DNA of 64,000 nt from a bacterium BMS3Bbin08 (GTDB lineage Bacteria > Nitrospirota > Thermodesulfovibrionia > UBA6902 > BMS3Bbin08), in assembly GCA_002897775.1 (NCBI GenBank), contig BDTR01000030.1:128070-192069 (forward strand). The letters are read 5' to 3'. Each line of letters starts with the position of its first letter. Position 1 is the stretch's first letter. Below are positions 18,655 to 63,194 of this stretch, piece after piece. Under the pieces are notes generated by a model. It saw only the letters and a list, made by a program, of their open reading frames with translations, searched no databases and had not been told where the DNA came from. A program made the position numbers and the translations under genes.

Positions 18655-19377
18655 TTATCCGGCTTTTTCGATTTCTTTCAATATAAGCTCCAGCGCTTTT
18701 ATTGGGCTGGGCTGGGCTGTTACGGACCTGCCGATCACAAGATAATCAGCGCCTCTTGCGATCGCCTGTTTTGGCGTCATGGTCCTTTTCTGGTCATCCG
18801 GAGGCGCCCATGACGGCCTGATGCCCGGGGTAACGATAAGAAAGCCACTGCCGCAGCGCGACCTGATCATCTCTATATCCTGAGGCGACGCGACCACTCC
18901 GTCCAGCCCCGCGTCTAAAGCAAGCTTTGCAAGATGTTTAACCTGGGTTGCCATACGATGCTGAATGCCTATTTCATCCCTGAGGATATCCTGATCAATG
19001 CTTGTCAGGACCGTTACGCCCAGTAATTTGGGCCTCTTGATATTTTTTTTAAGTGACGCTTTGACAAGTCCCTGTGCGGCCTGCTTCATCATCTCAAGTC
19101 CGCCCATAGTGTGTACATTGAACATGAACACCCCAAGTTCCGCTGCCGCGTGAGCTGACCTTGATACTGTATTGGGGATGTCGTGGAATTTAAGGTCAAG
19201 AAAGACCTTTTTGCCCATGGCGTTTATATCCTGTATTATTTTCGGGCCGGCAGATGTGAACAGTTCAGAGCCTACCTTGAATGTATCAATATGATCTTTG
19301 AACTGTTTGACTATGTCCAGTGCCCCTTCATGACCAGAGACATCAAGGGCAAGGATGATGCGTTCTTTTGGTTCCAT
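18655..19377 (-). CDS. pyrF: orotidine 5'-phosphate decarboxylase
   Basis: 240 aa with the conserved ILALDV...KVGSELF...FLDLKFHDIPNTV motifs. Confidence 0.9.
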   Translation of the reverse strand: MEPKERIILALDVSGHEGALDIVKQFKDHIDTFKVGSELFTSAGPKIIQDINAMGKKVFLDLKFHDIPNTVSRSAHAAAELGVFMFNVHTMGGLEMMKQAAQGLVKASLKKNIKRPKLLGVTVLTSIDQDILRDEIGIQHRMATQVKHLAKLALDAGLDGVVASPQDIEMIRSRCGSGFLIVTPGIRPSWAPPDDQKRTMTPKQAIARGADYLVIGRSVTAQPSPIKALELILKEIEKAG

Positions 19378-19382
19378 GGTTT

Positions 19383-19937
19383 TTAATTGTCAATTTTAGG
19401 CAGTGTTATATCCTTTTGTGCCTGGTATTTGCCTTTTTTGTCCGCGTAGGAACGTATGCACAGTTCATCAGCGCCCAGAAATATGATCTGCGCTATTCCT
19501 TCGTTTGCGTAGAGTTTGACGGGCCGCGGAGAGGTGTTTGAGATCTCTATTGTTACATGGCCTTCCCATTCAGGTTCAAGCGGGGTTACATTGACCACTA
19601 CACCGCATCTGGCATATGTAGATTTTCCCAGGCAGATCACGATCACGTCCCTTGGAAGCTTGAAATATTCCACTGATGCGGCAAGCACAAACGAGTTGGC
19701 GGGTATTACGCAGACATCACCTTTGAAGTCAGTAAAACTCTTGGGATCAAACCCCTTGGGATCAACAACCTCACTGCCTGAGTTGCTGAATATCTTGAAC
19801 CTGTCGGATATCCTCATGTCGTATCCGTAGGAACTGACGCCGTAAGAGATGGCCCCTTCCCTTACCTGGTTTTCAGCAAAGGGTGTGATCATCCCTTTTT
19901 CAGCCATTTCCTTTATCCAGCGGTCGTTTTTTACCAT
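19383..19937 (-). CDS. dcd: dCTP deaminase
   Basis: 184 aa with the typical Dcd/dUTPase-fold sequence. Confidence 0.88.
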
Positions 19938-20100
19938 AATTTTCTCTTGTTAATTAAGATAAAAGTGCGGTCTTTGAAAGGTTAACATAAAGGTTTATTC
20001 CTTTACAACAACATGCCTGCCCCCCCTGTCTGAATTTGATAGCTTCTTTCCGGTCTAACTAAACAGAGGTTTAAAGGGCGCAAAAAGGTCGCAGAAACGA

Positions 20101-20142
20101 TGAAATTTTACGCGCATAGTCTTGAAGGAAAGCCGCATTGAG
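20101..20142 (+). pseudogene. relic of the cas3 5' end (first ~13 codons)
   Basis: ATGAAATTTTACGCGCATAGTCTTGAAGGAAAGCCGCATTGA translates to MKFYAHSLEGKPH*. It is nearly identical to the start of cas3 at 22315 (MTEYYAHSLEGRPP). Confidence 0.75.
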
Positions 20143-20345
20143 ACAGAATTTACAAAATGCTTGAATATTCTTATCTATAGTGGCAGAATTAGAATTAATT
20201 ATGGCATATTATTTTAAACAGGCAGAGAGGTTGATCTATGATGCCTGAGAATGAGCCTGTCATGGCCATATCTGCAGCATAGTGAGTGCTTTCGAAAGGT
20301 GCGCGCCGGATCGACTGGGAACATTGGGATTAAAGGGGGACGGAA

Positions 20346-20662
20346 TGACGGGTAAAGCATATATTGAAATACCGGAAGAAAAAATAGCCCGGTTCTGCGG
20401 GAAATGGAAGATACGTGAATTCGCGCTCTTCGGTTCTGTCCTGAGGGATGATTTCAGACCTGACAGCGACATTGACGCGCTGGTTACTTTTGATGAGGAT
20501 GCTCAACACTCCCTGTTTGACCTTGTTAATATGGAAGATGAACTCAGGGAGATTTTTGGGCGCAATGTGGACCTGGTAAGCCGCAAAGGCATTGAAGCAA
20601 GCAGAAATTATATACGAAGAAACGCAATATTGAACTCCGCAGAGGCGGTATATGCAGCGTGA
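20346..20662 (+). CDS. nucleotidyltransferase (MNT/MntA-type antitoxin)
   Basis: Polymerase beta-type nucleotidyltransferase motif GS...D.D (FALFGSVLRDDFRPDSDIDALVTF). Overlaps the downstream DUF86 gene. Shine-Dalgarno-like AAGGGGGA lies upstream of the ATG at 20346. Confidence 0.8.
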
Positions 20663-20996
20663 CCGTGAGTTTTTCCTCGACATATTGGAGGCGGCAAAAC
20701 TCGCTGTCTCTTATGTCGGTGAAAAGTCTAAGGAAGATTTTTTAAAAGACCCTCAGTGTCAGGACGCTGTTATCAGACGGCTTGAGATAATAGGTGAAGC
20801 ATCCCGACGGATTTCTGCGGAGACACAGGCGGATTTTCCTGATTTGCCGTGGGGTGAAATGATCGGAATGCGGAATGTGATGATCCATAAGTATGACGAC
20901 GTGGACCCCGGTATAGTCTGGAAGACAGTAAAAAGTAACCTCCCAAAACTTATTACATCATTTAAAACGATACTCGAAGCGCCTGATAAAGAGTAA
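20652..20996 (+). CDS. HepT-like (DUF86, HEPN superfamily) toxin
   Basis: 114 aa with the DUF86 layout (RLEIIGEASRRIS...MRNVMIHKYDDVD). Overlaps the upstream MNT gene by 11 nt. Confidence 0.8.
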   Translation: MQRDREFFLDILEAAKLAVSYVGEKSKEDFLKDPQCQDAVIRRLEIIGEASRRISAETQADFPDLPWGEMIGMRNVMIHKYDDVDPGIVWKTVKSNLPKLITSFKTILEAPDKE

Positions 20997-21112
20997 CCAT
21001 CATTATTGACCACTTATTGTTCTTCCCGTGGAGAACAGGAAAACTTCCGGAGTAATGCACCAAGGAAATTATATAAAAGTCCAAAAGGGTAATAATTGCG
21101 TAAATATTACGC

Positions 21113-21285
21113 GCATAGGCTTGATGAAAAGCCGCCCGATGAATGGCATCTGCTTGTCAAAAACTCGCAGAGAGGAACATTTATTGAATGTAGCAAAACT
21201 GGCGGAAAAATTTACAGATGAATTTGGCTCCGGGGAATGGGCGTATCTGGCGGGGCTGTGGCATAGGCTAAGAAAATTATAATAG
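21113..21285 (+). pseudogene. diverged relic of the cas3 5' end (~55 codons)
   Basis: In-frame similarity to cas3 codons 4-60. YYAHRLDEKPPDEWHLL aligns with YYAHSLEGRPPDEWHLL. KFTDEFGSGEWAYLAGLWHRL aligns with EFANYFGAKTWGELAGANHDL. Confidence 0.7.
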
Positions 21286-21304
21286 AATGTGAAGGAGGAC
21301 AAAT

Positions 21305-22138
21305 TTGGAAACAAGTATAGCAGTTTTTAAGGGTAAGCAGATCAGAAAAACTATTCATAACAACGAATGGTGGTTTTCAATTATCGATGTAATTGAGGTG
21401 CTCACCGGAACTGAGCGACCACGAAAGTACTGGAATGATTTAAAGAAAAAGCTGGCGGATGAAGGATATGACGAGTTGTCCGAAAAAATCGGACAACTGA
21501 AAATACAGTCGGCAGACGGGAAATACTATAAGACAGACTGTTCAAATACAGAGACAATGTTCAGGCTTATCCAGTCCATTCCATCTCCCAAAGCTGAACC
21601 TTTCAAGCGCTGGCTGGCAAAGGTTGGCTACGACCGTGTCCAGGAAATTGAAGACCCTGAACTCGGCACGAAAAGGACAAGGGCTTTATACAAGGCGAAG
21701 GGCTATTCGGACGACTGGATTGAAAAGCGCATGCGCGGTATTGCCATTCGTGAAGAGCTTACAGATGAGTGGAAAAAGAGGGAAGTGAAAGAGAAAAGGG
21801 AATACGAGATTCTCACTGCCGAGATTGCAAAAGCGGCATTCGGCATAACACCCGGCCAACACAAAAAACTTAAGGGACTGAAACGTCAAAACCTTCGTGA
21901 CCACATGAACGATCTCGAGTTAATTTTCTCAATGCTTGGCGAAGCGGCAACAACTGAGATAACGCGTGTTGATGATGCAAAAGGATTTAGTGAAAACAAA
22001 AAGTCAGCCCGTAAGGGTGGCGGCGTTGCAGGTAAGGCTCGGAAAGACCTTGAAAAAAAGACCAGGAAGAAGGTTGTTTCCCGTGAGAACTACCTGACCG
22101 AACCGGAGAGCCGGAAGAAGTTGGCAAGAAAGAAGTAA
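21305..22138 (+). CDS. Bro-N domain protein, DinD-like (DNA-damage-inducible protein D family)
   Basis: N-terminal Bro-N (FKGKQIRKTIHNNEWWFSIIDVIEVL). The central region resembles E. coli DinD (LKGLKRQNLRDHMNDLELIFSMLGEA). Lys/Arg-rich C-terminus. Confidence 0.7.
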   Translation: METSIAVFKGKQIRKTIHNNEWWFSIIDVIEVLTGTERPRKYWNDLKKKLADEGYDELSEKIGQLKIQSADGKYYKTDCSNTETMFRLIQSIPSPKAEPFKRWLAKVGYDRVQEIEDPELGTKRTRALYKAKGYSDDWIEKRMRGIAIREELTDEWKKREVKEKREYEILTAEIAKAAFGITPGQHKKLKGLKRQNLRDHMNDLELIFSMLGEAATTEITRVDDAKGFSENKKSARKGGGVAGKARKDLEKKTRKKVVSRENYLTEPESRKKLARKK

Positions 22139-22156
22139 AAAACGGGAGGGGTTGCA

Positions 22157-22306
22157 ATGGGACATGAAGCAAAGAAAACCGAACATTCCGGCGCCAAGAA
22201 AGGCTCTGGCGCATACTGGGGCAGAAAGGTTGCGGCGAAGAAGGAGTCGAACAGGAAAAGACGGGAGAATGATAAGGGAAGTGTGAGGGAGCAGAAGGAT
22301 CGGTAA
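22157..22306 (+). CDS. small basic hypothetical protein (49 aa)
   Basis: ATG preceded by GGGAGG. Translates to MGHEAKKTEHSGAKKGSGAYWGRKVAAKKESNRKRRENDKGSVREQKDR. Absent from the ORF track because it is under 60 aa. Confidence 0.3.
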   Translation: MGHEAKKTEHSGAKKGSGAYWGRKVAAKKESNRKRRENDKGSVREQKDR

Positions 22307-22314
22307 GGTTCAAG

Positions 22315-24492
22315 ATGACAGAATATTATGCGCATAGTCTTGAAGGAAGGCCGCCGGATGAATGGCATCTCCTGGATGAGCACTTGGAGAATGTTGCAAG
22401 AATGGCCGCTGAATTCGCTAACTATTTTGGCGCCAAAACATGGGGTGAATTAGCGGGGGCAAATCATGACCTTGGCAAAGGCACACGGCCTTGGCAGGCA
22501 TACCTTCGGAAATCAAATGATATTATTGACGAATTTGCCAAGTATTATAAAGGACATCCGAATCATGCTGCTGTAGGTGCGCAATGGCTTAATAACAACT
22601 CAAGGGAAGCTGGAAAATTGTTGGCATACTGTATCGCAGGACACCATGGGGGTCTGCCTAGTTGGAGCGATTCTCCTGTTGCCTCATTGGAGATGAAGCT
22701 TCAACAACCGTTTCCTGAAGTTGCTGTGCCTTGTACAGTCTCGGAATTTCCAACCACCCTGCCTTTTCCCATTGATTCGGATCGTTTTGGGTTTCAGTTG
22801 CAATTTTTTGTTCGAATGCTTTTTTCCTGTCTTGTAGATGCGGATTTTCTTGATACGGAAGCATCTCTGGACAAAAAGAGGTCCGGCTGGCGTTCTACCT
22901 ATCCTGGAATCAGCGAACTTCATGAGAGATTCTGGGCAAATTTCAATGTGTTGCGTGAAGGAGCTGATCAAACCTTAAATGTGAACCGGCAACGGGAACT
23001 GGTTCTTGAAGACTGCTTGCGGGCAGCGGCGTTGGAACCAGGATTGTTTTCACTGACGGTTCCAACCGGCGGCGGTAAGACTCTGGCCTCGCTGGCCTTG
23101 GCACTGAATCATGCGATAAATAAAGAAAAGAGAAGAATTATTTACGTCATTCCTTTTACCAGCATCATTGAGCAGAATGCCAAGGTTTTCCGTGATATGC
23201 TGGGTGAAAATGCTGTTCTGGAACACCATTGCAATTTTCTACCTGACGATTCGAATTGGCAAACCAGGCTTGCAACTGAAAATTGGGACGCCCCTGTAGT
23301 AGTAACGACCAATGTCCAGTTTTTCAATTCTTTTTATGCCAATAAGACATCGAAGTGCCGGAAGCTGCATAATGTGGTTGAGAGTATCATTATCTTTGAT
23401 GAAGTTCAGGCCATACCGGTTGAAAAGTTGAAGCCATGCCTGGAAGTCATCAAGGAGTTGTCACTGAACTATGGTGTTACCTCGATTTTATGCACGGCCA
23501 CGCAACCTGCCATTGAGTTTTCTGACCAATTCACTACCGGACTGCAGAATGTCACGGAAATTATTCAGGATGTCCCATCGCTCTTTACAGCCTTGAAACG
23601 AACGGAGGAGGCTTTTATTGGTGAACTCAGTGAGCAGGATATTGCAGAACGGTTGCTGGAACATGAACAGGTCCTGTGCATCGTGAATACTCGGCAGCAG
23701 GCACTGGATATCTTTAATGCCTTGCCTGAGTCCGATGCAAATTTTCATCTGAGCGCCTTGATGCACCCAGTCCACCGGACGAAAAAATTGAATGAAATCA
23801 GAAACAGATTGTCGCCCGCAAACAAATTGCCGTGTCGGGTGATCAGCACACAGTTGATTGAAGCAGGTGTTGATGTGGATTTTCCCTGTGTATTTCGGGC
23901 AGTTGCCGGAATCGACAGTATTGCCCAGGCTGCAGGGCGATGTAATCGGAACGGCCTGAGCAAGGTACCATGCAAAGTGTATGTGTTTGAGTTTTCGAAA
24001 GATGGTGTTTGCTCTTTCTTTCGTCATGCTGCACAATCAGCCGCGAAGCTCTTTGAACCATTTGCCGGAAAACTTACAGATCCTGAATGTGTCCGTGAGT
24101 ATTTCGCAGATTTTTTTTGGAAAAATGAACAACGAATGGATGAGGACGGTATCATCGAAAATTACTGTCAACCGGCGCAATCAGGTAATATTCAATTTCG
24201 TGACATTGCAGAATTCCAGATGATTAAATCAGCTACCAAGCCAGTAGTCATTGCTTTGGAAGAAAATGCTATCGAACTGGTGAGTTCGCTCGAATTTGCA
24301 GAGCACAAAGGAGGAATTCTTCGGAAGCTCCAGCAGTTCAGTGTTCAAATTTACCCGTATCAATTAGAAGAAATAAAGAATTGGCTGGAAAGTCCGGTGC
24401 CGGGCGTCTGGGTCTTGCGTTCGCAAGAGCTCTACTCCGAGACTACCGGGCTCAGGTGTAAGCCACCTGAAGGACAAGCATTTTTTGGTTAA
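22315..24492 (+). CDS. cas3: CRISPR-associated helicase/nuclease Cas3 (HD domain plus SF2 helicase), type I
   Basis: 725 aa. N-terminal HD nuclease (YAHSL...HDLGK...AGHHGG). DExH helicase motifs (VPTGGGKT, IFDEVQ). Confidence 0.93.
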   Translation: MTEYYAHSLEGRPPDEWHLLDEHLENVARMAAEFANYFGAKTWGELAGANHDLGKGTRPWQAYLRKSNDIIDEFAKYYKGHPNHAAVGAQWLNNNSREAGKLLAYCIAGHHGGLPSWSDSPVASLEMKLQQPFPEVAVPCTVSEFPTTLPFPIDSDRFGFQLQFFVRMLFSCLVDADFLDTEASLDKKRSGWRSTYPGISELHERFWANFNVLREGADQTLNVNRQRELVLEDCLRAAALEPGLFSLTVPTGGGKTLASLALALNHAINKEKRRIIYVIPFTSIIEQNAKVFRDMLGENAVLEHHCNFLPDDSNWQTRLATENWDAPVVVTTNVQFFNSFYANKTSKCRKLHNVVESIIIFDEVQAIPVEKLKPCLEVIKELSLNYGVTSILCTATQPAIEFSDQFTTGLQNVTEIIQDVPSLFTALKRTEEAFIGELSEQDIAERLLEHEQVLCIVNTRQQALDIFNALPESDANFHLSALMHPVHRTKKLNEIRNRLSPANKLPCRVISTQLIEAGVDVDFPCVFRAVAGIDSIAQAAGRCNRNGLSKVPCKVYVFEFSKDGVCSFFRHAAQSAAKLFEPFAGKLTDPECVREYFADFFWKNEQRMDEDGIIENYCQPAQSGNIQFRDIAEFQMIKSATKPVVIALEENAIELVSSLEFAEHKGGILRKLQQFSVQIYPYQLEEIKNWLESPVPGVWVLRSQELYSETTGLRCKPPEGQAFFG

Positions 24493-24495
24493 TAA

Positions 24496-26821
<2,326 letters not shown>

Positions 26822-27688: not shown

Positions 27689-28258
27689 ATGACTGAAAAG
27701 AAACAATCACCCCAACTAATCCCCCCGCACGGCGGTTACCAGGAACTCCAGTCCTACAAGATGTCGGAGATCGTGTATGACGCTACAGTAGTATTCTGCA
27801 ACCGCTTCATCAACATCCGCTCCCGCACTCATGACCAGATGGTGCAGGCGGCGCGAAGCGGGAAGCAGAATATCGCTGAGGGCAGCATGGCATCGGGCAC
27901 TTCAAAGAAGTTCGAGCTTAAGCTCGTCAGTGTGGCGCGGGCAAGCCTTGAAGAAGTGCTTCTGGATTTTAAGGACTATCTGAGGCAGAAGGGGCTTGTG
28001 CTTTGGACAAAGGATCATCCAAAGGCCGGTGAAGTGAGAAAACTCTGCTATCAAAAGAATAGGTCTTATACGACTTATAAGACCTATCTTGAGCAGTCGC
28101 CACCGGAGGTGGCGGCCAATACCATGATCTGTCTGATTCACCAGACAAACTATCTGCTGGACAAGCAGTTAAGGGCCCTTGAACAAGCCTTTCTGAAAGA
28201 AGGCGGCTTTACTGAAAGACTCTACCATGCGCGATCAGGGTCGCGCAAAAAGAAATAG
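27689..28258 (+). CDS. four-helix-bundle protein (23S rRNA intervening-sequence / Avd-like family) with a ~70-aa C-terminal extension, embedded in the cas operon
   Basis: LQSYKMSEIVYDATVVF...QMVQAARSGKQNIAEGSMASGTSKKFELKLVSVARASLEEV matches the family pattern (Y.L...NIAEG.....KEF......A.GSL.E). Its start overlaps the cas7 stop (TGAATG). cas4 starts 9 nt after its stop. Confidence 0.65.
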   Translation: MTEKKQSPQLIPPHGGYQELQSYKMSEIVYDATVVFCNRFINIRSRTHDQMVQAARSGKQNIAEGSMASGTSKKFELKLVSVARASLEEVLLDFKDYLRQKGLVLWTKDHPKAGEVRKLCYQKNRSYTTYKTYLEQSPPEVAANTMICLIHQTNYLLDKQLRALEQAFLKEGGFTERLYHARSGSRKKK

Positions 28259-28962: not shown

Positions 28963-29994
28963 ATGAAAAAACATCTTAACACATTATTCGTCACCACCCA
29001 GGGGGCATATCTTTCCAAGGATGGGGAAACCGTGTCAGTTAAGGTTGATGATGAAATCCGCTTGCGTATTCCAATTCACACAATTGGCGGTATTGTATGT
29101 TTCGGTCAGGTAAGCTGCAGTCCTTTTTTAATGGGGTTTTGCGCTAAAAATAACGTTGCTGTATCATTCCTGACTGAATACGGACGCTTTCTGGCAAAGG
29201 TTCAGGGGCCGGTATCCGGGAATGTGCTGTTACGAAGGGAACAATACCGGCTTGCTGATGATGAGACTGTTTCTTTAAATATTTCCAAATCAGTTATTAC
29301 AGGCAAACTTGTTAATACCAGAACAGTATTGCAGAGGTTTTTGAGAGACCACGCCGATAAACCAAATGCAGATGCAGTGAAACAGGCGTCAAAACTTATA
29401 AGCTCAACATTAAGACGGGTATATAACGAAACCTCGCTTGACGTGATAAGAGGATTTGAAGGAGATTCGGCTCGTATCTATTTCAGTGTTTTCGATAATC
29501 TTATCACTGCCAGTAAGAAAGAATTCTTTTTCAGGGAACGTAACAGGAGGCCTCCTTTGGATAGGGTGAACTGTCTGTTGTCATTTCTGTATACGATTGT
29601 AATGCATGATGTACGCTCTGCGCTTGAGACAGCAGGGCTTGATCCGGCGGTAGGGTTCCTCCACAAAGACCGGCCGGGCAGGTATGGACTCGCGCTGGAT
29701 ATGATGGAGGAATTCAGGCCGTTTCTTGCTGACAGGCTGGTTCTTTCTCTGATAAATCTCAGTCAGGTCAATGCAAAGGGATTTGAAGAAAAAGAAAATG
29801 AAGCTGTGCTAATGGATGATGATACAAGAAAGGCTGTCCTTGTTGCATATCAGAACCGGAAACAGGATGAGATTATGCATCCATTTCTTAATGAAAAAGT
29901 GACGATTGGATTGCTTTTTCATACGCAGGCATTATTGCTTGCAAGATATTTGCGCGGCGATTTGGATGCTTATCCGCCCTTTATCTGGAAGTGA
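28963..29994 (+). CDS. cas1: Cas1 integrase, type I-C
   Basis: 343 aa with the typical Cas1 sequence. Confidence 0.92.
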   Translation: MKKHLNTLFVTTQGAYLSKDGETVSVKVDDEIRLRIPIHTIGGIVCFGQVSCSPFLMGFCAKNNVAVSFLTEYGRFLAKVQGPVSGNVLLRREQYRLADDETVSLNISKSVITGKLVNTRTVLQRFLRDHADKPNADAVKQASKLISSTLRRVYNETSLDVIRGFEGDSARIYFSVFDNLITASKKEFFFRERNRRPPLDRVNCLLSFLYTIVMHDVRSALETAGLDPAVGFLHKDRPGRYGLALDMMEEFRPFLADRLVLSLINLSQVNAKGFEEKENEAVLMDDDTRKAVLVAYQNRKQDEIMHPFLNEKVTIGLLFHTQALLLARYLRGDLDAYPPFIWK

Positions 29995-30003
29995 GGATGA
30001 AAT

Positions 30004-30291
30004 ATGTTTGTTATAGTGAGCTATGATGTTTCAACTGAAGACGGCGGACAGCGGCGCCTGAGAAGGGTCGCCAGGGCATGTCAGGATTATGGACAGAGAG
30101 TTCAGTATTCTATTTTTGAATGTATGATTAATCCGGCGCAATGGACTTTTTTAAAAGAACGATTGATCAGTGAAATTGATCCTGAAAAAGACAGTCTGAG
30201 ATTTTATTACCTCGGCTCTAACTGGAAGCGCCGCGTGGAACATGTAGGGGTCCGGAAATCGCCTGATCAGGACGGTCCGTTGATCGTGTAA
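30004..30291 (+). CDS. cas2: Cas2
   Basis: 95 aa (MFVIVSYDVSTEDGGQRRLRRVARACQDYGQRVQYSIFEC). Confidence 0.92.
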   Translation: MFVIVSYDVSTEDGGQRRLRRVARACQDYGQRVQYSIFECMINPAQWTFLKERLISEIDPEKDSLRFYYLGSNWKRRVEHVGVRKSPDQDGPLIV

Positions 30292-30474: not shown

Positions 30475-31536
30475 GTCGCCCCCCATGCGGGGGCGTGGAT
30501 TGAAACCATATTAATTTGTATGGGCACGCCTGAAGGTTCGTCGCCCCCCATGCGGGGGCGTGGATTGAAACTTGCTAATACACTTTCATTTGAGATAGCG
30601 CATGGTGTCGCCCCCCATGCGGGGGCGTGGATTGAAACGCTTACCATCAATACAAACTGCTGAATATGCGTGTCGCCCCCCATGCGGGGGCGTGGATTGA
30701 AACTAGATAATCGCTGTTGGATACGCCAAGCAGTAAGTCGCCCCCCATGCGGGGGCGTGGATTGAAACTTGATAGCACTGATGGAGATACAGAAGAAACT
30801 GCGTCGCCCCCCATGCGGGGGCGTGGATTGAAACCTGTTAATATTGCAGGGATGGGTCAAATAGAAGTGGTCGCCCCCCATGCGGGGGCGTGGATTGAAA
30901 CTTAAAGAAAGTAACATATTCAAAAGAAAAAACAAGTCGCCCCCCATGCGGGGGCGTGGATTGAAACTAAAGTGTTCACGGCGTTGGCTTCACTGGACAC
31001 TAGTCGCCCCCCATGCGGGGGCGTGGATTGAAACAAATTAGTTTAACTAATGGAGGTGGCGGCATGGAAGTCGCCCCCCATGCGGGGGCGTGGATTGAAA
31101 CCCCGATTCAGGCAGAGGATTTTATCTTCGAGGCCGTCGCCCCCCATGCGGGGGCGTGGATTGAAACTATCTTCTTAGGATCATAGGTAACGCTTACACG
31201 TGTCGCCCCCCATGCGGGGGCGTGGATTGAAACAGTTTTGGGTTTTATAATTATTGATTCCATAGTCGTCGCCCCCCATGCGGGGGCGTGGATTGAAACT
31301 TGATAGCCATAGGTTTTTCGCACAATAAATAATGTCGCCCCCCATGCGGGGGCGTGGATTGAAACTGTCAATAATGTAACCAGCAATATCGGAGGTAACA
31401 TGTCGCCCCCCATGCGGGGGCGTGGATTGAAACGGCGCAAAGCTGTTCTATGTATACGACAGGACGTTGTCGCCCCCCATGCGGGGGCGTGCCTGTCTGC
31501 CGGTCTACGACTCGTATAGTAGGCAGGGATTGAAAC
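30475..31536 (+). CRISPR. CRISPR array: 16 repeats of the type I-C 32-bp repeat GTCGCCCCCCATGCGGGGGCGTGGATTGAAAC and 15 spacers of 33-35 bp. The last repeat carries a 36-bp insertion. A ~180-bp AT-rich leader lies between cas2 and repeat 1.
   Basis: Repeat starts at 30475, 30540, 30607, 30672, 30737, 30803, 30870, 30936, 31003, 31070, 31136, 31202, 31268, 31334, 31403 and 31469. Repeat 16 is split as GTCGCCCCCCATGCGGGGGCGTG, then 36 bp, then GATTGAAAC. Confidence 0.97.
31492..31527. mobile_element. 36-bp palindromic insertion (CCTGTCTGCCGGTCTACGACTCGTATAGTAGGCAGG) inside CRISPR repeat 16, between GCGTG and GATTGAAAC
   Basis: The repeat is otherwise intact on both sides. The termini CCTGyCTGCC/GGCAGG are inverted. 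The same left junction recurs at 35094. Confidence 0.7.
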
Positions 31537-31601
31537 TGAAGAAGGCAATATATTTAGCAAAAGAAGTCATAAATATTGTTATTATATAAATCAAGGAAAA
31601 G

Positions 31602-32403: not shown

Positions 32404-32493
32404 ATGAGCCCTGCACAAATCGTCCAAAAACTATGGAATTACTGCAATGTCCTTCGCTCTGACCGAATCCCAAGGCCGGGTGCTCAGAAGTAA
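32404..32493 (+). pseudogene. relic 5' fragment of a type I restriction-modification hsdM gene (29 codons)
   Basis: MSPAQIVQKLWNYCNVLRSDRIPRPGAQK* is the HsdM N-terminal signature (LW..C..LR). Almost identical at DNA level to the fragment at 34900. Confidence 0.7.
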
Positions 32494-32648: not shown

Positions 32649-33455
32649 ATGGAAAAAATAACAGGCTTAGGAACAATTGACAGGGAGCGGTTAACCGCAT
32701 TAATTCGCGGTACAAAAGGCACTATTTCAGTTGCCGAGTCAGCGGATATTTTAAAGGTATCTTCAGTTAGCGCAGCGAAGATGCTTGCTCGCTGGGCGAA
32801 AAAAGGGTGGCTGTCACGTGTGCGCCGCAGTATATATATATCCATTCCTCTTGAATCCCGCACAACCGATGTTCCTCTTGAAGACCCGTGGCTTGTTGCT
32901 GATCGTTTATTCAGCCCGTGTTATATCGGGGGATGGAGCGCGGCTGAGTACTGGAATCTCACTGAACAAATCTTTCGCACTATAGCAGTAATGACAGTAC
33001 AAAAACCAAGAAATCGTACCCCTAATATCAGAGGAACAAATTTTCTGCTTCGCACTGTTCCGGAAAGAACCATGTTTGGGCTAAAATCTGCCTGGAGGGG
33101 ACAGGTGAAAGTATCAGTATCTGACGCAACCAGGACAATTCTTGATATGCTCAATGATCCGGGACTCGGTGGCGGAATACGGTCGACTGCCGATATGTTT
33201 AAAGATTATTTAAAATCGGAAAACAAAAATCTGGACATGCTCATCGACTATTCCACGCGTTTTGGAAATGGCGCGGTCTTTAAACGTCTTGGTTTTATGC
33301 TGGAGCGTTTTTCTCCGGACGAAAACACTATCATTGAAAAGTGCAAATCGCAATTAACCAAAGGGAACTCTAAACTTGATCCAAAACTCGGGGCGGACAA
33401 GCTCGTTACACGCTGGAAGTTATGGATTCCAAAAAATTGGGTAAAGGAGCAATGA
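32649..33455 (+). CDS. AbiEi-type antitoxin (type IV toxin-antitoxin; winged-HTH regulator)
   Basis: 268 aa with an N-terminal wHTH (LTALIRGTKGTISVAESADILKVSSVSAAKMLARWAKKGWLSRVRRSIY). Gene pair with the AbiEii gene downstream. Confidence 0.75.
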   Translation: MEKITGLGTIDRERLTALIRGTKGTISVAESADILKVSSVSAAKMLARWAKKGWLSRVRRSIYISIPLESRTTDVPLEDPWLVADRLFSPCYIGGWSAAEYWNLTEQIFRTIAVMTVQKPRNRTPNIRGTNFLLRTVPERTMFGLKSAWRGQVKVSVSDATRTILDMLNDPGLGGGIRSTADMFKDYLKSENKNLDMLIDYSTRFGNGAVFKRLGFMLERFSPDENTIIEKCKSQLTKGNSKLDPKLGADKLVTRWKLWIPKNWVKEQ

Positions 33456-33456
33456 C

Positions 33457-34890
33457 GTGATTGATCGCCGGGAGATCATGGAGTTTTCCAGAGAGTGGGG
33501 ACTGACTGCAAATGTCATTGAAAAAGATTATGTGCTTGGATGGGTATTGGCCGGGATTGCCGGTCATGATAAGCTGGGTTCTGAATGGGTGTTTAAAGGA
33601 GGGACCTGTTTAAAGAAGTGTTACTTTGAAACATATCGCTTTTCCGAAGACCTGGATTTTACCGTAGTGAATGCTGAGCATTTGAACGAAGAATATCTTC
33701 TGTCTTCATTTCGTGATGTCGCCGGATGGATATACGAATCTACCGGCATAGAAATCCCGGCAGATACGATCCGTTTTGAAATCTATACAAATCCACGCGG
33801 CGCAACATCTGTTCAGGGAAGGATTGGTTACCGGGGACCAATGCAGCCTGGCGGGGCCCTTCCCCGGATAAAACTGGATTTAACAAATGATGAAATATTA
33901 GTTCTTGATCCCGCTGTACGGGAAGTCCATCATCCTTATTCCGACAGACCGGAAGACGGCATCTCCGCAAGGTGCTATTCTTTCGAAGAAGTGTATGCGG
34001 AAAAAGTCAGGGCATTGGCGGAACGTGAAAGACCGCGCGATCTTTATGACGTTATACATCTTCATCGTCATGACAGTTTAAGAACTAATCGTGAGTTAAT
34101 AATGAGCACGCTTGAAAAGAAGTGTGAATTTAAAGGGATATCCGTACCGACTATAGAAGCACTGGAAAATAAACCCGAGCGTGCCGAACTGGAAGCTGAA
34201 TGGGAGAATATGCTGGCACACCAATTGCCTGTTTTACCGCCGTTTGGACAATTCTGGCAGGAACTTCCTGAGGTGTTTGAATGGTTATATCGCGCAGTTG
34301 AAAAAGTTGCGGCTCTTCCGATATCTTCCGGACGTTATGAGGTTGATGAAACATGGCATGCCCCTGCAATGGCACAAGCCTGGTATGCTAATGCACCGCT
34401 TGAAATAATACGTTTTGCAGCAGCTAACCGTTTATGTGTGAATTTAAAATATAATGGTACAAATCGTGTCATAGAGCCATATTCCCTGCGCAGGACAAAA
34501 GATGGAAATTTGTTATTATATGCCGTCAAACACAATACACACGAGGACAGATCCTATAGAATTGACAGGATACAGGGAGCAGAAGCGACCAAGACGCCAT
34601 TTACGCCTCGTTATGTAGTCGAACTGACTGCTGCCGGACCGATTTCGGCACCTCCAACAGAACGGACATCATCCGGATATGGATTAACCAATACCAGAAA
34701 ATCAAGAATCGGTCGGGGTAGGTCTATAAGCCGTTCAATGAGTTTTGGGCCTAAATATATAATCGAATGTACTTATTGCGGTAAGAAATTCAATCGAAAA
34801 AGCTATACTACCAGTCTAAATGCTCACAAGGATAAAAGCGGATATCCTTGCCCGGGAAGGATTGGGTATATGGTAGATACGAAGTATTAG
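33457..34890 (+). CDS. AbiEii/AbiGii-family nucleotidyltransferase toxin fused to a C-terminal WYL-like domain and a zinc ribbon
   Basis: N-terminus: DUF1814/AbiEii motifs (WVFKGGTCLKKCYFETYRFSEDLDFTVV). Residues ~310-375: LKYNGTNRVIEPYSLRRTKDGNLLLYAVKHNTHEDRSYRIDRI matches the WYL-domain pattern. C-terminus: CTYCGKKF...CPGRIGY. GTG start at 33457 with AAGGAG 7 nt upstream. Confidence 0.7.
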   Translation: MIDRREIMEFSREWGLTANVIEKDYVLGWVLAGIAGHDKLGSEWVFKGGTCLKKCYFETYRFSEDLDFTVVNAEHLNEEYLLSSFRDVAGWIYESTGIEIPADTIRFEIYTNPRGATSVQGRIGYRGPMQPGGALPRIKLDLTNDEILVLDPAVREVHHPYSDRPEDGISARCYSFEEVYAEKVRALAERERPRDLYDVIHLHRHDSLRTNRELIMSTLEKKCEFKGISVPTIEALENKPERAELEAEWENMLAHQLPVLPPFGQFWQELPEVFEWLYRAVEKVAALPISSGRYEVDETWHAPAMAQAWYANAPLEIIRFAAANRLCVNLKYNGTNRVIEPYSLRRTKDGNLLLYAVKHNTHEDRSYRIDRIQGAEATKTPFTPRYVVELTAAGPISAPPTERTSSGYGLTNTRKSRIGRGRSISRSMSFGPKYIIECTYCGKKFNRKSYTTSLNAHKDKSGYPCPGRIGYMVDTKY

Positions 34891-34899
34891 AACAATAAA

Positions 34900-35060
34900 A
34901 TGAGCCCAGCACAAATCGTCCAAAAACTCTGAAATTACTGCAACGTCCTTCGTGACGACGGAATGAGCTGCGGAGATTATGTGGAACAGCTTACGTATCT
35001 GCTGTTTCTCAAGATGGCTGATGAGAGGGCTAAACCGCCATATAATCAACCGACTCAGTA
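34900..35060 (+). pseudogene. second relic hsdM 5' fragment (~53 codons) with a premature stop (TGG to TGA at codon 11), cut off by a CRISPR repeat remnant
   Basis: MSPAQIVQKL*NYCNVLRDDGMSCGDYVEQLTYLLFLKMADERAKPPYNQPTQ* has the HsdM N-terminal domain signature. No intact hsdM follows. Confidence 0.7.
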
Positions 35061-35070
35061 AATAGATTTA

Positions 35071-35093
35071 GTTGCCCCCCATGCGGGGGCGTG
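35071..35093 (+). repeat. CRISPR repeat 5' portion (GTTGCCCCCCATGCGGGGGCGTG) joined directly to CCTGCCTGCCAGTCTACGACT...
   Basis: 23 of 23 positions match the repeat with one mismatch. It breaks at the same position as repeat 16, and the adjoining sequence matches the left end of the 36-bp insertion. Confidence 0.75.
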
Positions 35094-35316
35094 CCTGCCT
35101 GCCAGTCTACGACTGAGAAAAATCCCGCCTTCAGAAGATAATGCTGTGAGATCGATAAATAAAGCTGAACACTGGTTAAAAACAAAGCAATGGTGCCGGT
35201 AACTGATGTGGACTACTGACACATATAAAAGAGAGGGTATTTGTTAATTTTGACAAACTATAATAATTAAGTTATACTTTAATTAAGAAGTAAAACAAAT
35301 TTATGGAGGTAAAACT

Positions 35317-35604
35317 ATGCCTACAGTAACTGTATCATCAAAAGGGCAGATTGTCATGCCAAAAAAGATACGGGATGCCCTTGGCATAAAGCCGAAACAG
35401 AAGGTATTTTTGAAAGTTGTACAAGATCATGCTGAAATTATACCGCTGCCGGAAAATCCTGCTCAGGCATTCTGCGGTATTTTCAAAAAAGGTTCATCAC
35501 TGACAAAATCACTGCTGAAGGATCGAAAGGAGGAAGCAAAACTTGAAGAGAAAAATATTGCTCGATTCTTACGCGCTTCTGGCATATCTAAAAAAAGAAG
35601 ATAA
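35317..35604 (+). CDS. vapB: AbrB/MazE/SpoVT-family antitoxin (VapB-like)
   Basis: MPTVTVSSKGQIVMPKKIRDALGIKPKQKVFL is the swapped-hairpin AbrB-type DNA-binding domain. Lies upstream of the PIN gene and overlaps it in another frame. Confidence 0.7.
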   Translation: MPTVTVSSKGQIVMPKKIRDALGIKPKQKVFLKVVQDHAEIIPLPENPAQAFCGIFKKGSSLTKSLLKDRKEEAKLEEKNIARFLRASGISKKRR

Positions 35605-35944
35605 CTACAGGAAAGTGATGGAATTATTAAATTCGGCGCCTGAAGATTGTTCTATTATAATGAATGAAATCAATGCGGGAGAAAGTTACTATATTATTGC
35701 CAGAGAAAGAGGAATCAGGCAAGCCGATTATTTCATTGAAACCATTCTTCCTAACCTTCCTATAGACATTATATCCAATTCATTCGACCAGATCATAGAT
35801 GCTTCCAGAATCAAAGTTGACCATTCCATTTCTTATGCTGACTGTTTTGTTGTCGCTACAGCCGTCCGTGAAAAAGCCGTGATTGTTACAGGCGATCCTG
35901 ATTTTAAGCGAGTTAAAGATATTGTGGATGTAGAATGGATATAG
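35543..35944 (+). CDS. vapC: PIN-domain ribonuclease toxin (VapC-like)
   Basis: KILLDSYALLAY near the N-terminus carries the first acidic PIN residue. CFVVATAVREKAVIVTGDPDF carries the later one. The start assignment is uncertain; this one overlaps vapB by about 60 nt. Confidence 0.7.
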   Translation: MKRKILLDSYALLAYLKKEDNYRKVMELLNSAPEDCSIIMNEINAGESYYIIARERGIRQADYFIETILPNLPIDIISNSFDQIIDASRIKVDHSISYADCFVVATAVREKAVIVTGDPDFKRVKDIVDVEWI

Positions 35945-35979: not shown

Positions 35980-36019
35980 TGCCCCCCCCATGCGGTGGCG
36001 TGCCTGCGGGGATTGAAAC
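35980..36019 (+). repeat. degenerate CRISPR repeat carrying an 8-bp insertion (CCTGCGGG) at the same GCGTG^GATTGAAAC position
   Basis: GCCCCCCCCATGCGGTGGCGTG-cctgcggg-GATTGAAAC. This is either a degenerate terminal repeat or a footprint of the palindromic element. Confidence 0.6.
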
Positions 36020-36136
36020 TGCTTTATTTCAGTGCCTTCAGTGTTCTCAGTGGTTGTATGAGAGAATATTCAATTACCCAGGACTGAAGCTGCTCTATTG
36101 ACTACTCCATTTATTCGGAGGTATACTTAAAAATAT

Positions 36137-36250
36137 CCTGGGGGAGGCGCAGACCTGTGGAACTACGGGTCAGGCCTGAGAGTTTTCCCGAATATTCGGG
36201 GAGAGACCCCTTGAACCTGAACTGGGTAATACCAGCGGAGGAAAAGGAGG
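36137..36250 (+). ncRNA. TPP (THI-box) riboswitch
   Basis: Conserved CTGAGA (36176-36181) and ...GACCCCTTGAACCTGAACTGGGTAATACCAGCGGAGGAA fit the THI element consensus. Located upstream of the thiamine operon. Confidence 0.8.
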
Positions 36251-36265
36251 AATAAAAAAATTATA

Positions 36266-59328: not shown

Positions 59329-60258
59329 TTAATCCAGTATTTTCAATACAGTTATTTTATTGCTTCTCATCTCCACTACAAGCAGTTTATTATTATCTAT
59401 GAACATTCCCACAGGTGTATTAAATTTTCTTAACGTTCCCTTTTTGCACAGGGCCCCGATAAAACGTCCCATGTCAGTGAAGACCTGTATGACCCCCATA
59501 TAGCTGTCGCTGATGAATACCCTGCTTTTGCCGTCCACTGCCACCCCTTTTGGTCTGAAAAGATTACCTGGGAGAACACCCCATGAACCTATATCAGCTA
59601 TGAATTTTCCAAAAGGGTCGAATTTCTGAACCCGGGTGTTAAGCACATCAACAACGAATATTTCATTGAACTGGTTTATTGCCAGAATGCCCGGATAACG
59701 GAACTCCCCGTATTGCTCTCCCTGTTTTCCCCATTCAAACTCAAAAGTTCCGTTCTGCTTATATACCTTAATTTTGTGATTGTCATTGTCAGAGATATAG
59801 AGGTAATTTTTGAGTTTGGATACGAGGACGTCAACGGGGTCGGACGGCCGTTCACCCTTACCGCTATTGACAGTGAACATATATAGGAAATTCCCCTTTG
59901 GATCGAAGACCTGAACCCTGTGGTTCCCGGTATCAGCTATGAACACTTTCCCGTTATCGGATATGTCTATTCCAACGGGCTGTTTGAACTGTCCTTTTCC
60001 CGTGCCCCATCTGCCAAATGAGAATTTCCATTTCCCCCTTTTGTTGACAACTATTATCCTGTTGTTCACTCCGTCAACCAGATATATGTCGCCGTTAGGC
60101 CCTATAGCCAGATCGCTCGGCTGGTCAGCGTTGGGTTTGATCTCAAAAAGGGATCTTGTGTTTATGCATTCAACAGCTGGAGATACACTCGGAGCAAACA
60201 GGACGGAAAGGATCGCTATAAGAAAAAAAAAGCCAGAGATGAATCTTTTCTTAATCAA
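59329..60258 (-). CDS. NHL-repeat (six-bladed beta-propeller) periplasmic protein
   Basis: Signal peptide. Repeated YVVD/FVAD-type NHL blades (NNRIIVVN, NHRVQVFD, NHKIKVYK, NTRVQKFD). Confidence 0.75.
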   Translation of the reverse strand: MIKKRFISGFFFLIAILSVLFAPSVSPAVECINTRSLFEIKPNADQPSDLAIGPNGDIYLVDGVNNRIIVVNKRGKWKFSFGRWGTGKGQFKQPVGIDISDNGKVFIADTGNHRVQVFDPKGNFLYMFTVNSGKGERPSDPVDVLVSKLKNYLYISDNDNHKIKVYKQNGTFEFEWGKQGEQYGEFRYPGILAINQFNEIFVVDVLNTRVQKFDPFGKFIADIGSWGVLPGNLFRPKGVAVDGKSRVFISDSYMGVIQVFTDMGRFIGALCKKGTLRKFNTPVGMFIDNNKLLVVEMRSNKITVLKILD

Positions 60259-60353
60259 GCAAATAACTATCCCTTCAAATACAAATAGCCTTTCCGGCCA
60301 AAAAAGCAGGATGTTTTTTTTTATACATTATATATTTTATACCCGAACCTCTA

Positions 60354-62069: not shown

Positions 62070-62086
62070 AATCCCTCCAATATTTA

Positions 62087-63166: not shown

Positions 63167-63194
63167 ATCTTGCCCCTCCTTATTATATATTTAT

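Follow-up and report, generated by a model that had tools for sequence, protein, structure and literature searches.

Partial copies of the cas3 start accompany stacked small-gene cassettes at the head of a type I-C CRISPR-Cas locus, most likely through homologous recombination

How did the region upstream of an intact cas3 gene come to hold fragments of the start of that gene, with small defence-type genes lying between them? The question is raised by a 64,000-nt stretch of the genome of bacterium BMS3Bbin08 (Nitrospirota; contig BDTR01000030.1, positions 128,070 to 192,069), referred to here as the window, in whose coordinates all positions are given. The intact type I-C cas3 gene (22315 to 24492, plus strand) encodes 725 aa with Cas3 HD and helicase matches in both Pfam and NCBIfam. 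It is followed by cas5c, cas8c (Csd1), cas7, cas4, cas1, cas2, and then a CRISPR array with a 32-nt repeat, GTCGCCCCCCATGCGGGGGCGTGGATTGAAAC; Pfam matches were obtained for 7 of 7 genes, which places the locus in type I-C. On the other side, dcd (19383 to 19937, minus strand; dcd, pyrF, and trpE were identified by Pfam) borders an intergenic region (19938 to 20099, plus strand) that forms the left edge of the island and is presumed to be the original upstream region of cas3. This flank is identical across all population contigs and is a putative promoter region; scans of 19850 to 22500 for promoters and terminators returned no more sites than in shuffled sequences.

The initial annotation described two partial cas3-start copies upstream of cas3, and such copies, here termed stubs, are indeed present. 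Counting cas3 itself, the window holds three copies of the cas3 start with a 34-nt core, at 20103 to 20136 (stub a), 21102 to 21135 (stub b), and 22321 to 22354 (cas3). The second and third cores are each 88% identical to the first, taken as the reference (30 of 34 positions for stub a against the cas3 start and likewise against stub b). A DNA profile of cas3 5' ends (nhmmer), from whose construction stubs a and b were excluded, was applied to a 2.5-kb region and matched stub b at 21101 to 21272 (E = 7e-37) and stub a at 20099 to 20142 (E = 1.7e-8), with no comparable match in the shuffled window. Together with the nucleotide alignment, these values indicate that the similarity to cas3 is real and significant. 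No standalone CRISPR-repeat-like sequence was detected near the stubs within 19900 to 22400, and no Rfam family was found in the stub region.

Stub a (20100 to 20141, plus strand) is the outermost and most truncated copy, with an ATG and 12 codons of the cas3 start followed by a stop; it translates as MKFYAHSLEGKPH and also gave a six-frame HMM match at 20100 to 20135. Its position agrees with the ~40 bp first noted at 20101 to 20142, but its description as nearly identical to the real start does not hold at 30 of 34 positions. An apparent continuation of stub a at 20201 to 20230, resembling the insertion region of stub b, was rejected because 17 of 500 shuffles scored equally high. Stub b (21096 to 21279, plus strand) holds ~57 codons of the cas3 start with a broken frame. 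Its translation reads LRKYYAHRLDEKPPDEWHLL, is interrupted by a 16-nt insertion and frameshift (21156 to 21171), and continues with EEHLLNVAKLAEKFTDEFGSGEWAYLAGLWH, then RLRKL and a stop; the stub ends in GLWH, directly before the aspartate of the HD motif. With 78% identity to cas3 across 69 nt, it is a diverged copy as originally described, but it starts at ~21096 to 21101 instead of 21113. The translation of the intact cas3 begins MTEYYAHSLEGRPPDEWHLLDEHLENVARMAAEFANYFGAKTWGELAGANHDLGK; the region copied in the stubs is the first ~160 nt of the gene (22321 to 22476), with the HD codons at 22465 to 22470. Stub b also holds the 14-mer GATGAATGGCATCT (21138 to 21151), which is otherwise found within the window only in cas3 (22357 to 22370) and is also present in a Scalindua stub. 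An allele of stub b, b', is an intact 74-aa ORF in locus L022.

Cassette 1 lies between stubs a and b and consists of genes for an MNT nucleotidyltransferase antitoxin (20345 to 20662; Pfam NTP_transf_2, E = 3.8e-16; PADLOC PDC-S09, E = 4e-23) and a HepT (HEPN) toxin (20652 to 20996; Pfam HepT-like, E = 2.7e-26), both on the plus strand with reading frames overlapping by 11 nt. The translations show GS...R and DxD (DIDA) motifs in MNT and an Rx4H motif (RNVMIH) in HepT. The overlapping genes, the domain matches (PF01909 and PF01934), and these motifs characterize a predicted toxin-antitoxin pair, as the initial annotation had it. Cassette 2, between stub b and cas3, begins with a gene for a Bro-N domain protein (21305 to 22138, plus strand; 277 aa, TTG start; Pfam Bro-N, E = 2e-13), whose best match overall was the PADLOC candidate PDC-S13 (E = 2.3e-118); PHROG 15286 and anti-repressor families also matched. 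Of its earlier label, DinD/Bro-N, only Bro-N (PF02498) was retained; DinD was rejected because no NCBIfam family matched at E <= 0.01 and the Pfam match covers only the N-terminal Bro-N domain. Between this gene and cas3 lies a small basic ORF (22157 to 22306, plus strand; 49 aa), which gene calling recovered, unchanged in sequence, from 11 contigs and which had no family match in the Pfam, NCBIfam, PADLOC, and PHROG libraries. The same window also holds hsdM 5' stubs flanking AbiE and CRISPR-repeat relics flanking MazE/PIN.

Stubs of this kind are frequently found where type I-C loci of uncultured bacteria begin. A first search returned 802 matches among 1.84e9 representatives, the top ones being nearly all short, and a search with a stub profile returned 1432 matches, the best 120 of which were all 52 to 102 aa long; many of the stub-profile matches sit on contigs of 67 to 318 kb. 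The family ORFs end within ~10 residues past the Cas3 HD motif. Type I-C operons headed by such ORFs occur in Nitrospirota, Scalindua, Deltaproteobacteria, and metagenome contigs from groundwater. What follows the ORF is often a cas3 that is divergent but complete, or cargo that is a candidate for defence, and in some cases the ORFs are stacked. A stub lies directly before a complete cas3 in loci L090, L097, L098, and L101, before cas5 in L093, and before an SLFN/AlbA_2 gene in L102 to L107; a DUF6036 pair lies between two stubs in L098, and ORF6N genes adjoin stubs in L022, L098, and L102. Stacking was found in three unrelated lineages, and operon-distal copies are more decayed than proximal ones (a and b in the window, fragments in L098 and L102). 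Stub lengths include 12 (a), 37, ~57 (b), and 147 codons, with most ends spread over ~10 codons. The stubs cover positions 1 to 46 (ending at 42 to 46) of the 178-position TIGR01596 HD model and score below its cut-off.

Between lineages, the DNA identity of the stubs is only 60 to 74% and synonymous sites are saturated, indicating that the stub is not conserved as DNA, unlike a selected homology arm. Intact stubs show pN values of 0.09 to 0.28 versus pS values of 0.5 to 0.9 (pN/pS of 0.12 for the two L098 stubs), and the 12 members of the NGFLC family are 70 to 93% identical with no indels. The stubs are members of a widespread, protein-conserved family, and not decayed duplicates of the resident cas3 as first proposed. 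Two collection scans of 52 relatives of the 725-aa Cas3, many of whose contigs carry little upstream sequence, yielded only one further lineage with stubs (L009, L062, and L064). A word-indexed homolog search with stub b' matched only itself, and cas3 matches on plasmids of cultured bacteria were all full-length, with no stubs. A candidate cas5 stub in L088 was rejected, as this cas5 gene is split by an insertion of ~135 to 150 nt and not duplicated. No description of cas3 5' stubs was found in the literature searched.

Co-occurring strain variants differ in the cargo at the cas3 junction. The gene order of the window (V1) recurs in seven independent assemblies and read sets, indicating that it is not an assembly artefact. 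V2, a single 10-kb contig, carries another stub allele, an ORF6N gene, and a different Bro-N gene at the same junction. V1 and V2 are identical up to 21105, the segment from 21106 to 22112 (stub b and cargo) is replaced as a unit, and the sequences are essentially identical again from 22113 to ~29600 (three 200-nt bins at 98.0 to 99.5%); a second replaced patch lies in cas1/cas2. A crossover between V1 and V2 at the 14-mer inside stub b was rejected, because the differences begin at 21106 and the whole stub was exchanged with the cargo. V3 tracks the resident allele V4 (L036) to 22341, the two having SNPs in common at 22207, 22334, and 22341, whereas V3 sequence from 22374 onward is foreign, which places the crossover within 22342 to 22373, inside the cas3 start and in an interval that includes the 14-mer. 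As a result, the resident cas3 start has become a third stub, behind which lie another cas3 (833 aa) and another cas5c. The junction between this stub and the 833-type cas3 is homologous to that of Ca. Scalindua sediminis (57-aa stub before cas3-827), indicating that the module was imported ready-made. An assembly artefact is rejected for V1 but not fully for V3, which is one contig of one assembly with adapter sequence at its end; an odd tail on the Cas5 fragment at this end is not cas5 sequence but Illumina adapter. Both comparisons (V1/V2 and V3/V4) show the pattern of homologous exchange in a defence hotspot, in which nearly identical sequence gives way abruptly to a divergent segment. Variants V1, V2, and V3 thus show that the arrangement is not a stable ancestral gene order, and the cargo variation that the initial annotation anticipated among close relatives is found. 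Empty sites exist as well, most relatives of the 725-aa Cas3 with 10 kb of upstream sequence having neither stub nor cassette; empty sites and alternative cargo are equally expected under homologous exchange.

We put at roughly 55% the probability that the 2.2 kb upstream of cas3 is an accretion zone that arose by recombination, composed of stub a with MNT/HepT and stub b with Bro-N and the small ORF. Cassettes, and possibly whole cas operons, are most likely swapped at the head of type I-C loci by homologous recombination. Incoming DNA carrying a stub, cargo, and possibly cas3 and further genes would pair through its stub with the resident cas3 start, and its right side would pair with cas3, cas genes, cargo, or CRISPR repeats. 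Homologous or homeologous recombination would then install the cargo and a new cas3 start, and the resident start would stay behind on the left as a hybrid stub. Repeated rounds would stack modules with the oldest outermost, distal stubs would then decay, and a dedicated recombinase would not be needed. We infer that stub-mediated recombination creates the stacks. The layered layout first proposed is supported by the position of the presumably oldest and most decayed stub furthest from cas3. Of the two origins initially offered, recombination between loci with cassettes upstream of cas3 fits the data better, given the homologous breakpoints in V2 and V3. The hsdM stubs and CRISPR-repeat relics show the same pattern, which argues for a general recombinational process over a cas3-specific recombinase. 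Several points count against this model. The low DNA identity between lineages suggests that recombination through stubs would be limited to reasonably close relatives or to short stretches of identity. The model leaves unexplained how the many different stub/cargo junctions first arose and why junctions cluster within ~10 codons past the HD motif, and the conservation of intact stubs as proteins may point to a function of the stubs themselves, for which the model has no need. V2 and V3 are each known from a single contig, and stubs were rare among the 52 relatives of the 725-aa Cas3.

Such a function could be that of a mini-protein of ~57 to 63 aa, for example one modulating Cas3 or Cascade, or that of a translated leader from which the next gene obtains its promoter, its start, and a GK(G/Y) codon stretch resembling a Shine-Dalgarno sequence, with the cassettes using this expression platform. 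A functional stub, which we regard as rather unlikely, is compatible with the recombination model. It would suit the predominance of synonymous differences among intact stubs, the indel-free NGFLC family, and the bit scores of the best 120 of the 1432 matches, which are short and score 104 to 123 bits versus 73 to 102 for full-length Cas3 N-termini. The next gene begins 3 to 60 nt past the stub or overlaps its end (L098, L101, and L102), and a stub is kept before the 833-type cas3 in four lineages with ~70 to 84% Cas3 identity (three confirmed by sequence and the fourth, P0368 with P0114, inferred). However, DNA-level copies are often broken, in stub a by truncation to 12 codons, in stub b by a frameshift (with YAHR), and in a copy c by a deletion and a change of the catalytic H to P, and broken relics also occur in L009, L098, and L102. 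Reaching only position 46 of the HD model, a stub could not form an active site. Low pN/pS is equally expected if each stub was recently cut from a functional cas3, and the ascertainment bias is strong, the profile having been built from stubs and the protein search seeing intact ORFs only. The decay of distal stubs and the variable stub lengths would also suit passive debris, left when illegitimate recombination brought in one locus or cassette after another and the older cas3 genes were deleted to random 5' remnants. The stubs would then have no role, and their common end point would reflect detection bias, as a 50-aa profile preferentially recovers fragments in which residues 1 to 50 are preserved. 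This is improbable; longer remnants would score equally in a 90%-clustered database, yet the best 120 matches do not exceed 102 aa. Moreover, junctions with one particular downstream gene recur among different stubs from several phyla, strains exchange segments that include stubs, and random deletion does not explain why a complete first gene frequently lies so close behind the stub or overlaps it.

Slightly less probable still is site-specific integration, in which small elements would use the first cas3 codons as attB and carry a replacement 5' end, their integrase being located elsewhere or lost. Direct repeats of the target gene end flank each cassette with the gene restored, stub ends cluster near the HD motif, and the cargo varies at the site, all of which such elements would produce. 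However, scans of the island genes and of 19 flanking window ORFs (160 aa or longer, cas and cassette genes excluded; the scans covered all but a few large ORFs such as 59329 to 63995 on the minus strand) revealed no integrase or transposase domain, and no integrase, transposase, or IntI was found among the called genes of L090, L093, L097, L098, L101, and L102. The original remark that the window lacks an integrase is therefore correct for the ORFs scanned. In place of identical attL/attR cores with a fixed crossover point, the repeats are 78 to 88% identical and the two window stubs end at codons 12 and 57; across the family, the ends scatter over 10 codons or more, with further stubs 37 and 147 codons long. 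None of 18 inverted repeats in 19000 to 25000 lies at a cassette border. The variant breakpoints fall in homologous sequence, and the pattern recurs within this island for hsdM starts and for CRISPR repeats. The initial comparison with integrase-driven islands at tRNA ends is thus not supported.

Under the preferred reading of homologous recombination, the cas3 fragment marks, and probably mediates, the installation of new cassettes and possibly of entire cas operons, with a bearing on the turnover of CRISPR-Cas loci and nearby small defence genes in nature. A more tentative proposal, which we consider possible but doubtful, is that the stub is a selected portable landing pad that travels with cassettes and whole type I-C operons, permits integrase-free installation at a resident cas3, and displaces or silences the resident nuclease gene; it may also be a mini-protein or translational leader. 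If true, CRISPR loci would carry at their head a capture platform that resembles an integron but works without an integrase, and CRISPR-Cas systems would have a route for competing with one another. The analysis also groups more than 1000 small metagenome ORFs labelled HD domain-containing or hypothetical into one family with a defined position, outside all curated models, by which annotators could recognize accretion zones in type I-C loci. For experimentalists, it offers the hypothesis of recA-dependent capture through the stub or of a mini-ORF function. The same pattern for hsdM starts and CRISPR repeats in this island suggests that the principle may extend beyond cas3.

Several known systems resemble this arrangement in part. 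Shmakov et al. 2023 describe CRISPR-cas loci that contain TA modules as cargo as well as standalone repeat-like elements, with standalone repeats in 34% of type I-C loci (PMC10120712). The window similarly has TA cargo beside its cas locus and repeat relics around MazE/PIN, but the passages of that paper considered here concern repeat-like RNAs guiding regulation, and none of these passages mentions cas3 5' stubs (PMC10120712). Split Cas3 proteins (the Cas3'' HD nuclease and Cas3' helicase of types I-A and I-B) also place a small HD-similar ORF beside a helicase gene, and databases label some stubs as HD domain-containing protein. In contrast to Cas3'', which has a complete HD domain with all metal-binding motifs, the stubs stop within the first 46 of 178 model positions. 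The downstream cas3 has its own complete HD N-terminus in L090 and L097, as does the cas3 further along the operon in L093, and the downstream cas3 of L098 and of L101 opens with another N-terminal match, weaker than the first.

Silent partial gene copies are used in gene conversion in pilS/pilE and hsdS shufflons, where, as here, partial copies of the variable or terminal part of a gene adjoin the expressed gene and recombine with it. Nothing indicates that the stubs diversify Cas3, however; cargo genes lie between the copies, and many stubs precede a cas3 too divergent for recombination with the stub. Integrons combine an IntI integrase with attC inverted-repeat sites bounding each cassette. 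Their arrays resemble the window in stacking small one- or two-gene cassettes, all oriented alike, after a fixed platform at the array head, with cargo rich in TA and defence-type genes, whereas here neither IntI (in the ORFs scanned) nor attC-like inverted repeats at the cassette borders were found and the recurring unit is a gene fragment. Genomic islands enter tRNA 3' ends, or the 5' or 3' ends of protein genes, by means of tyrosine or serine integrases. As in such islands, the insert lies between direct repeats of the target end and keeps the gene intact by supplying a new end, and tandem arrays can form at one site; here, in contrast, no integrase was found in the scanned ORFs, the repeats are diverged and of unequal length, the breakpoints resemble those of homologous exchange, and what is duplicated is coding sequence from the 5' end of cas3. 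Defence systems in hotspots of Vibrio, Escherichia coli, and Pseudomonas aeruginosa are reportedly exchanged by homologous recombination in conserved flanks. The island resembles these hotspots in its fixed housekeeping flanks (dcd on the left, a TPP riboswitch and thiH on the right), in its variable content among close strains, and in its mosaic breakpoints. It differs from them in that the fragment of the cas3 start travels with the cargo as internal homology, leading to stacks of stubs.

Upstream of the intact cas3 gene (22315-24492) lie two partial copies of a cas3 5' end (stubs), stub a at 20100-20141 and stub b at 21096-21279. A 34-nt core of the cas3 start is present in three copies, at 20103, 21102, and 22321, and the latter two are each 88% identical to the copy at 20103, taken as the reference. 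Stub b is 78% identical to cas3 over 69 nt. When cas3 5' ends were modeled as a DNA profile with a and b left out, this profile recovered b with an E value of 7e-37 and a with an E value of 1.7e-8, and matches of such strength were absent from shuffled windows. The copies of the cas3 start reported in the initial annotation are thus confirmed. Stub a consists of ATG, 12 codons, and a stop, while stub b spans approximately 57 codons in a frame broken by a 16-nt insertion, and its likeness to cas3 ceases exactly ahead of the HD-motif aspartate. MNT and HepT genes are located between the two stubs, and the interval from stub b to cas3 contains a Bro-N gene and a basic ORF of 49 aa. Since PADLOC places the MNT and Bro-N proteins in candidate families (PDC-S09 and, at 2e-118, PDC-S13, respectively), "defense-type cassette" is a fair label for this predicted cargo; the identity "DinD" previously given to the Bro-N protein was unsupported. 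The gene order of the stub region is the same in seven independent assemblies of one population.

The stub region is the left edge of a 16-kb defense island, bordered on the left by the housekeeping genes trpE, pyrF, and dcd (ending at 19937) and on the right by a TPP riboswitch (36130-36261; Rfam RF00059, 61.7 bits) upstream of thiH in the thi operon. The island contains a complete type I-C CRISPR-Cas system, in which cas3 is followed by cas5c, cas8c, cas7, a four-helix-bundle gene, cas4, cas1, and cas2 and which includes a CRISPR array with a 32-nt repeat. MNT/HEPN, AbiEi/AbiEii, and MazE/PIN genes lie downstream of the array. This type I-C lineage has another cargo slot between cas7 and cas4, whose length varies between 0 and 2.7 kb. 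In the window it holds the four-helix-bundle gene (27689-28258; TIGR02436 plus TIGR04258), and in relatives it holds Bro-N genes or fragments (L017, 6717-7764; L018, 10994-11446; L005, 16400-16741; L008, 5492-5629). The Bro-N in L017 is 73% identical and lies beside a truncated four-helix-bundle gene.

Exact-protein look-ups retrieved four arrangements of this locus, V1 to V4, all from the same population, with V1 being that of the window. V2 (contig L022) equals V1 through position 21105 and, from 22113 to approximately 29600, is once more essentially identical (three 200-nt bins at 98.0 to 99.5%). Between these points it carries a different stub allele, b' (an intact 74-aa ORF), an additional ORF6N gene (PDC-S05 in PADLOC), and a Bro-N gene that differs from that of V1 in its N-terminal part. 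Given the identity on either side of the replaced segment, stub plus cargo was swapped as a single unit between V1 and V2. A second replaced patch between these arrangements (29633-30179), covering the cas1 3' end and the greater part of cas2 at 58 to 90% identity, sits inside about 7.5 kb of near-identity, which suggests a gene-conversion-like replacement. V4 (L036) is V1 with three single nucleotide polymorphisms (SNPs). One of these, at 22334, changes cas3 codon 7 from CAT to CCT, replacing the histidine of the YAHS motif with proline; this histidine is the first metal ligand of the HD domain (the first catalytic histidine), and cas3 is otherwise intact. The proline allele, present in L036 and L023, may represent a natural nuclease-dead cas3.

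V3 (L023) tracks V4 through 22341 and is foreign from 22374. Here, what was the resident cas3 start forms a third stub, c, of 49 aa and ending in GLWH, and a different cas3 (833 aa) with cas5c starts 30 nt past it. The crossover interval (22342-22373) includes the 14-mer GATGAATGGCATCT, which occurs in the whole window only in stub b and cas3. V3 is provisional, being known from a single contig whose end bears adapter sequence. Illumina adapter is found at contig ends in assembly ERZ1742237 (L023, 1-70; L079, 1-185), and contig termini of this assembly need care. With V2 and V3 both differing from V1 within one population, the proposed cargo turnover at the junction holds. An 833-type cas3 is also found in bacterium BMS3Abin06-like contigs (L087-L089), where it is 760 aa long, lacks the HD motif along with the rest of its first ~75 codons, has unrelated sequence upstream, and is followed by a cas5 split by an insertion of ~135 to 150 nt.

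A junction homologous to that between stub c and its 833-type cas3 exists in "Ca. Scalindua sediminis," where a 57-aa ORF (MKEFYAHSLDG...GLWHDIGKGF, then stop) lies four bases ahead of a cas3 of 827 aa. Stubs b, b', c, and the Scalindua stub match one another at 60 to 72%, being at least as alike as they are to the N termini of full-length Cas3 (52 relatives), with two exceptions: the closest full-length matches of b' (63%) exceed its 60% match to c, and c consists of the resident allele in its 5' half. When b' was searched exhaustively with phmmer against 1.84 billion representatives, 802 matches were obtained, and nearly all of the best ones were ORFs of 60 to 120 aa ending at or just past GLWH(DLGK) before unrelated tails. 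A profile built from 37 such ORFs gave 1,432 matches in a set of 5.8 billion proteins; the best 120 of these were all 52 to 102 aa long, mostly 57 to 63 aa, and none was full length. Many of these 120 are on contigs of 67 to 318 kb and are therefore not contig-end fragments. Among curated families, none covers the stub ORFs, the match being confined to the first 42 to 46 positions of the 178-position Cas3 HD model. Plasmids of cultured bacteria gave full-length cas3 matches only (best, 58.5% identity). Judged by these similarities, the stubs are a family rather than local debris. One 110-aa protein from the representative search (P0140) contains two tandem cas3-start stubs in one ORF, with no cargo between them.

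In every context fetched, the stub heads a type I-C-like operon. It is followed by a complete, divergent cas3 in L090, L097, L101, and L098 (its own HD N terminus was read in L090 and L097, and in L098 and L101 the N terminus gave weaker profile matches), by cas5 in L093, and by cargo (an SLFN/AlbA_2-HTH gene) in L102 to L107. Stacks as in the window were found in two further lineages. In L098, two ORF6N genes and a short relic precede a 147-aa stub, which is followed by a DUF6036 nucleotidyltransferase pair, then a 63-aa stub, and finally cas3; the L102 stack runs as relic, ORF6N, stub, cargo, and cas5, and its sister contig L106 has cas3 instead of cas5 after the cargo. In each stack, the copy closest to the operon remains intact and those farther out show decay, which fits the layering order proposed in the initial annotation. 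Among the 52 resident-Cas3 relatives in genome and metagenome scans, many of whose contigs include just a few hundred bases ahead of cas3, a stub was found in one further lineage only (L009, L062, and L064). In the closest Cas3 relative (89% identical; L001, a Nitrospirae metagenome-assembled genome), an ORF6N gene lies upstream of cas3 between direct repeats of ~120 nt (251-370 and 1028-1145; 73 to 80% identical) that contain the short ORF start METYFNYWGKAK, and a Bro-N pseudogene abuts cas3.

The stub-plus-cassette pattern of cas3 is repeated elsewhere in the island. The AbiEi/AbiEii cassette (32649-34890) lies between two 5' stubs of hsdM (type I restriction-modification methylase), at 32404-32466 and 34900-35058. 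These stubs read MSPAQIVQKLWNYCNVLR..., with 86% identity between them over 65 nt; the second spans 52 codons and has an in-frame stop. The hsdM gene itself is absent from the window. The terminal CRISPR repeat (31469-31550) is split by a 35-nt insert, and far beyond the array, repeat relics at 35071-35114 and 35980-36019 flank the MazE/PIN pair (35317-35944), one being 93% identical to the left part of the terminal repeat and the other a degenerate repeat. This recurrence with hsdM starts and CRISPR repeats argues for a general recombinational process behind such stubs.

The initial annotation had proposed serial integration at the cas3 start, in the manner of islands at tRNA 3' ends, or recombination between loci. 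The layering and cargo turnover stand, whereas integrase-type insertion is not supported: no integrase or transposase domains were detected in the island or in 19 scanned flanking ORFs (a few large ORFs at the right end of the window being outside the scan), the stub repeats are diverged, and the stub ends are unequal. Stub end points are spread over 0 to 10 residues past GLWH in the best 120 of the 1,432 matches, which excludes a single cut site. The scanned ORFs contain no site-specific recombinase gene, the cassette borders bear no inverted repeats, and the abrupt switches from identity to divergence inside shared sequence are marks of homologous exchange. These observations together favor recombination mediated by the stub. 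The stub of incoming stub-cargo-(cas3...) DNA would pair with the start of the resident cas3, and the right part of that DNA would pair with sequence from cas genes, cargo, or repeats. The ensuing recombination would install the cargo and a new cas3 start, leaving a hybrid stub on the left, and repeated rounds would produce stacks; V3 would be a worked example. We have moderate confidence (0.55) in this model, with evidence from few contigs. It does not account for the formation of the first stub/cargo junctions or for their clustering after the HD motif.

The stub itself may also have a role. Stub tails group into families tied to particular downstream genes, intact stubs differ chiefly at synonymous sites (pS, 0.5 to 0.9; pN, 0.09 to 0.28), and they score higher with the stub profile than full-length Cas3 N termini do. 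The synonymous bias and high scores possibly reflect selection for a stub function as small protein or leader, recurrent renewal through recombination with functional cas3 starts, or ascertainment, as protein searches see intact ORFs only and the profile was built from stubs. The frequent breakage of stub copies found at the DNA level speaks against a strict protein function. The GK(G/Y) codons after the HD motif resemble a Shine-Dalgarno sequence, and the next gene usually begins 3 to 60 nt past the stub or overlaps its end, making a role as an expression platform conceivable.

No description of cas3 5' stubs was found in the literature searched. The passages considered from PMC10120712, a study of standalone repeats and toxin-antitoxin cargo in cas loci, deal with elements other than cas3 stubs. 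Islands at gene ends and integron arrays have a similar layout, but neither an integrase in the scanned ORFs nor the att sites of the former or the attC sites of the latter were found here. The stub region fits the homologous turnover of defense hotspots, to which it adds a defense-gene fragment that rides with the cargo and builds stacks.
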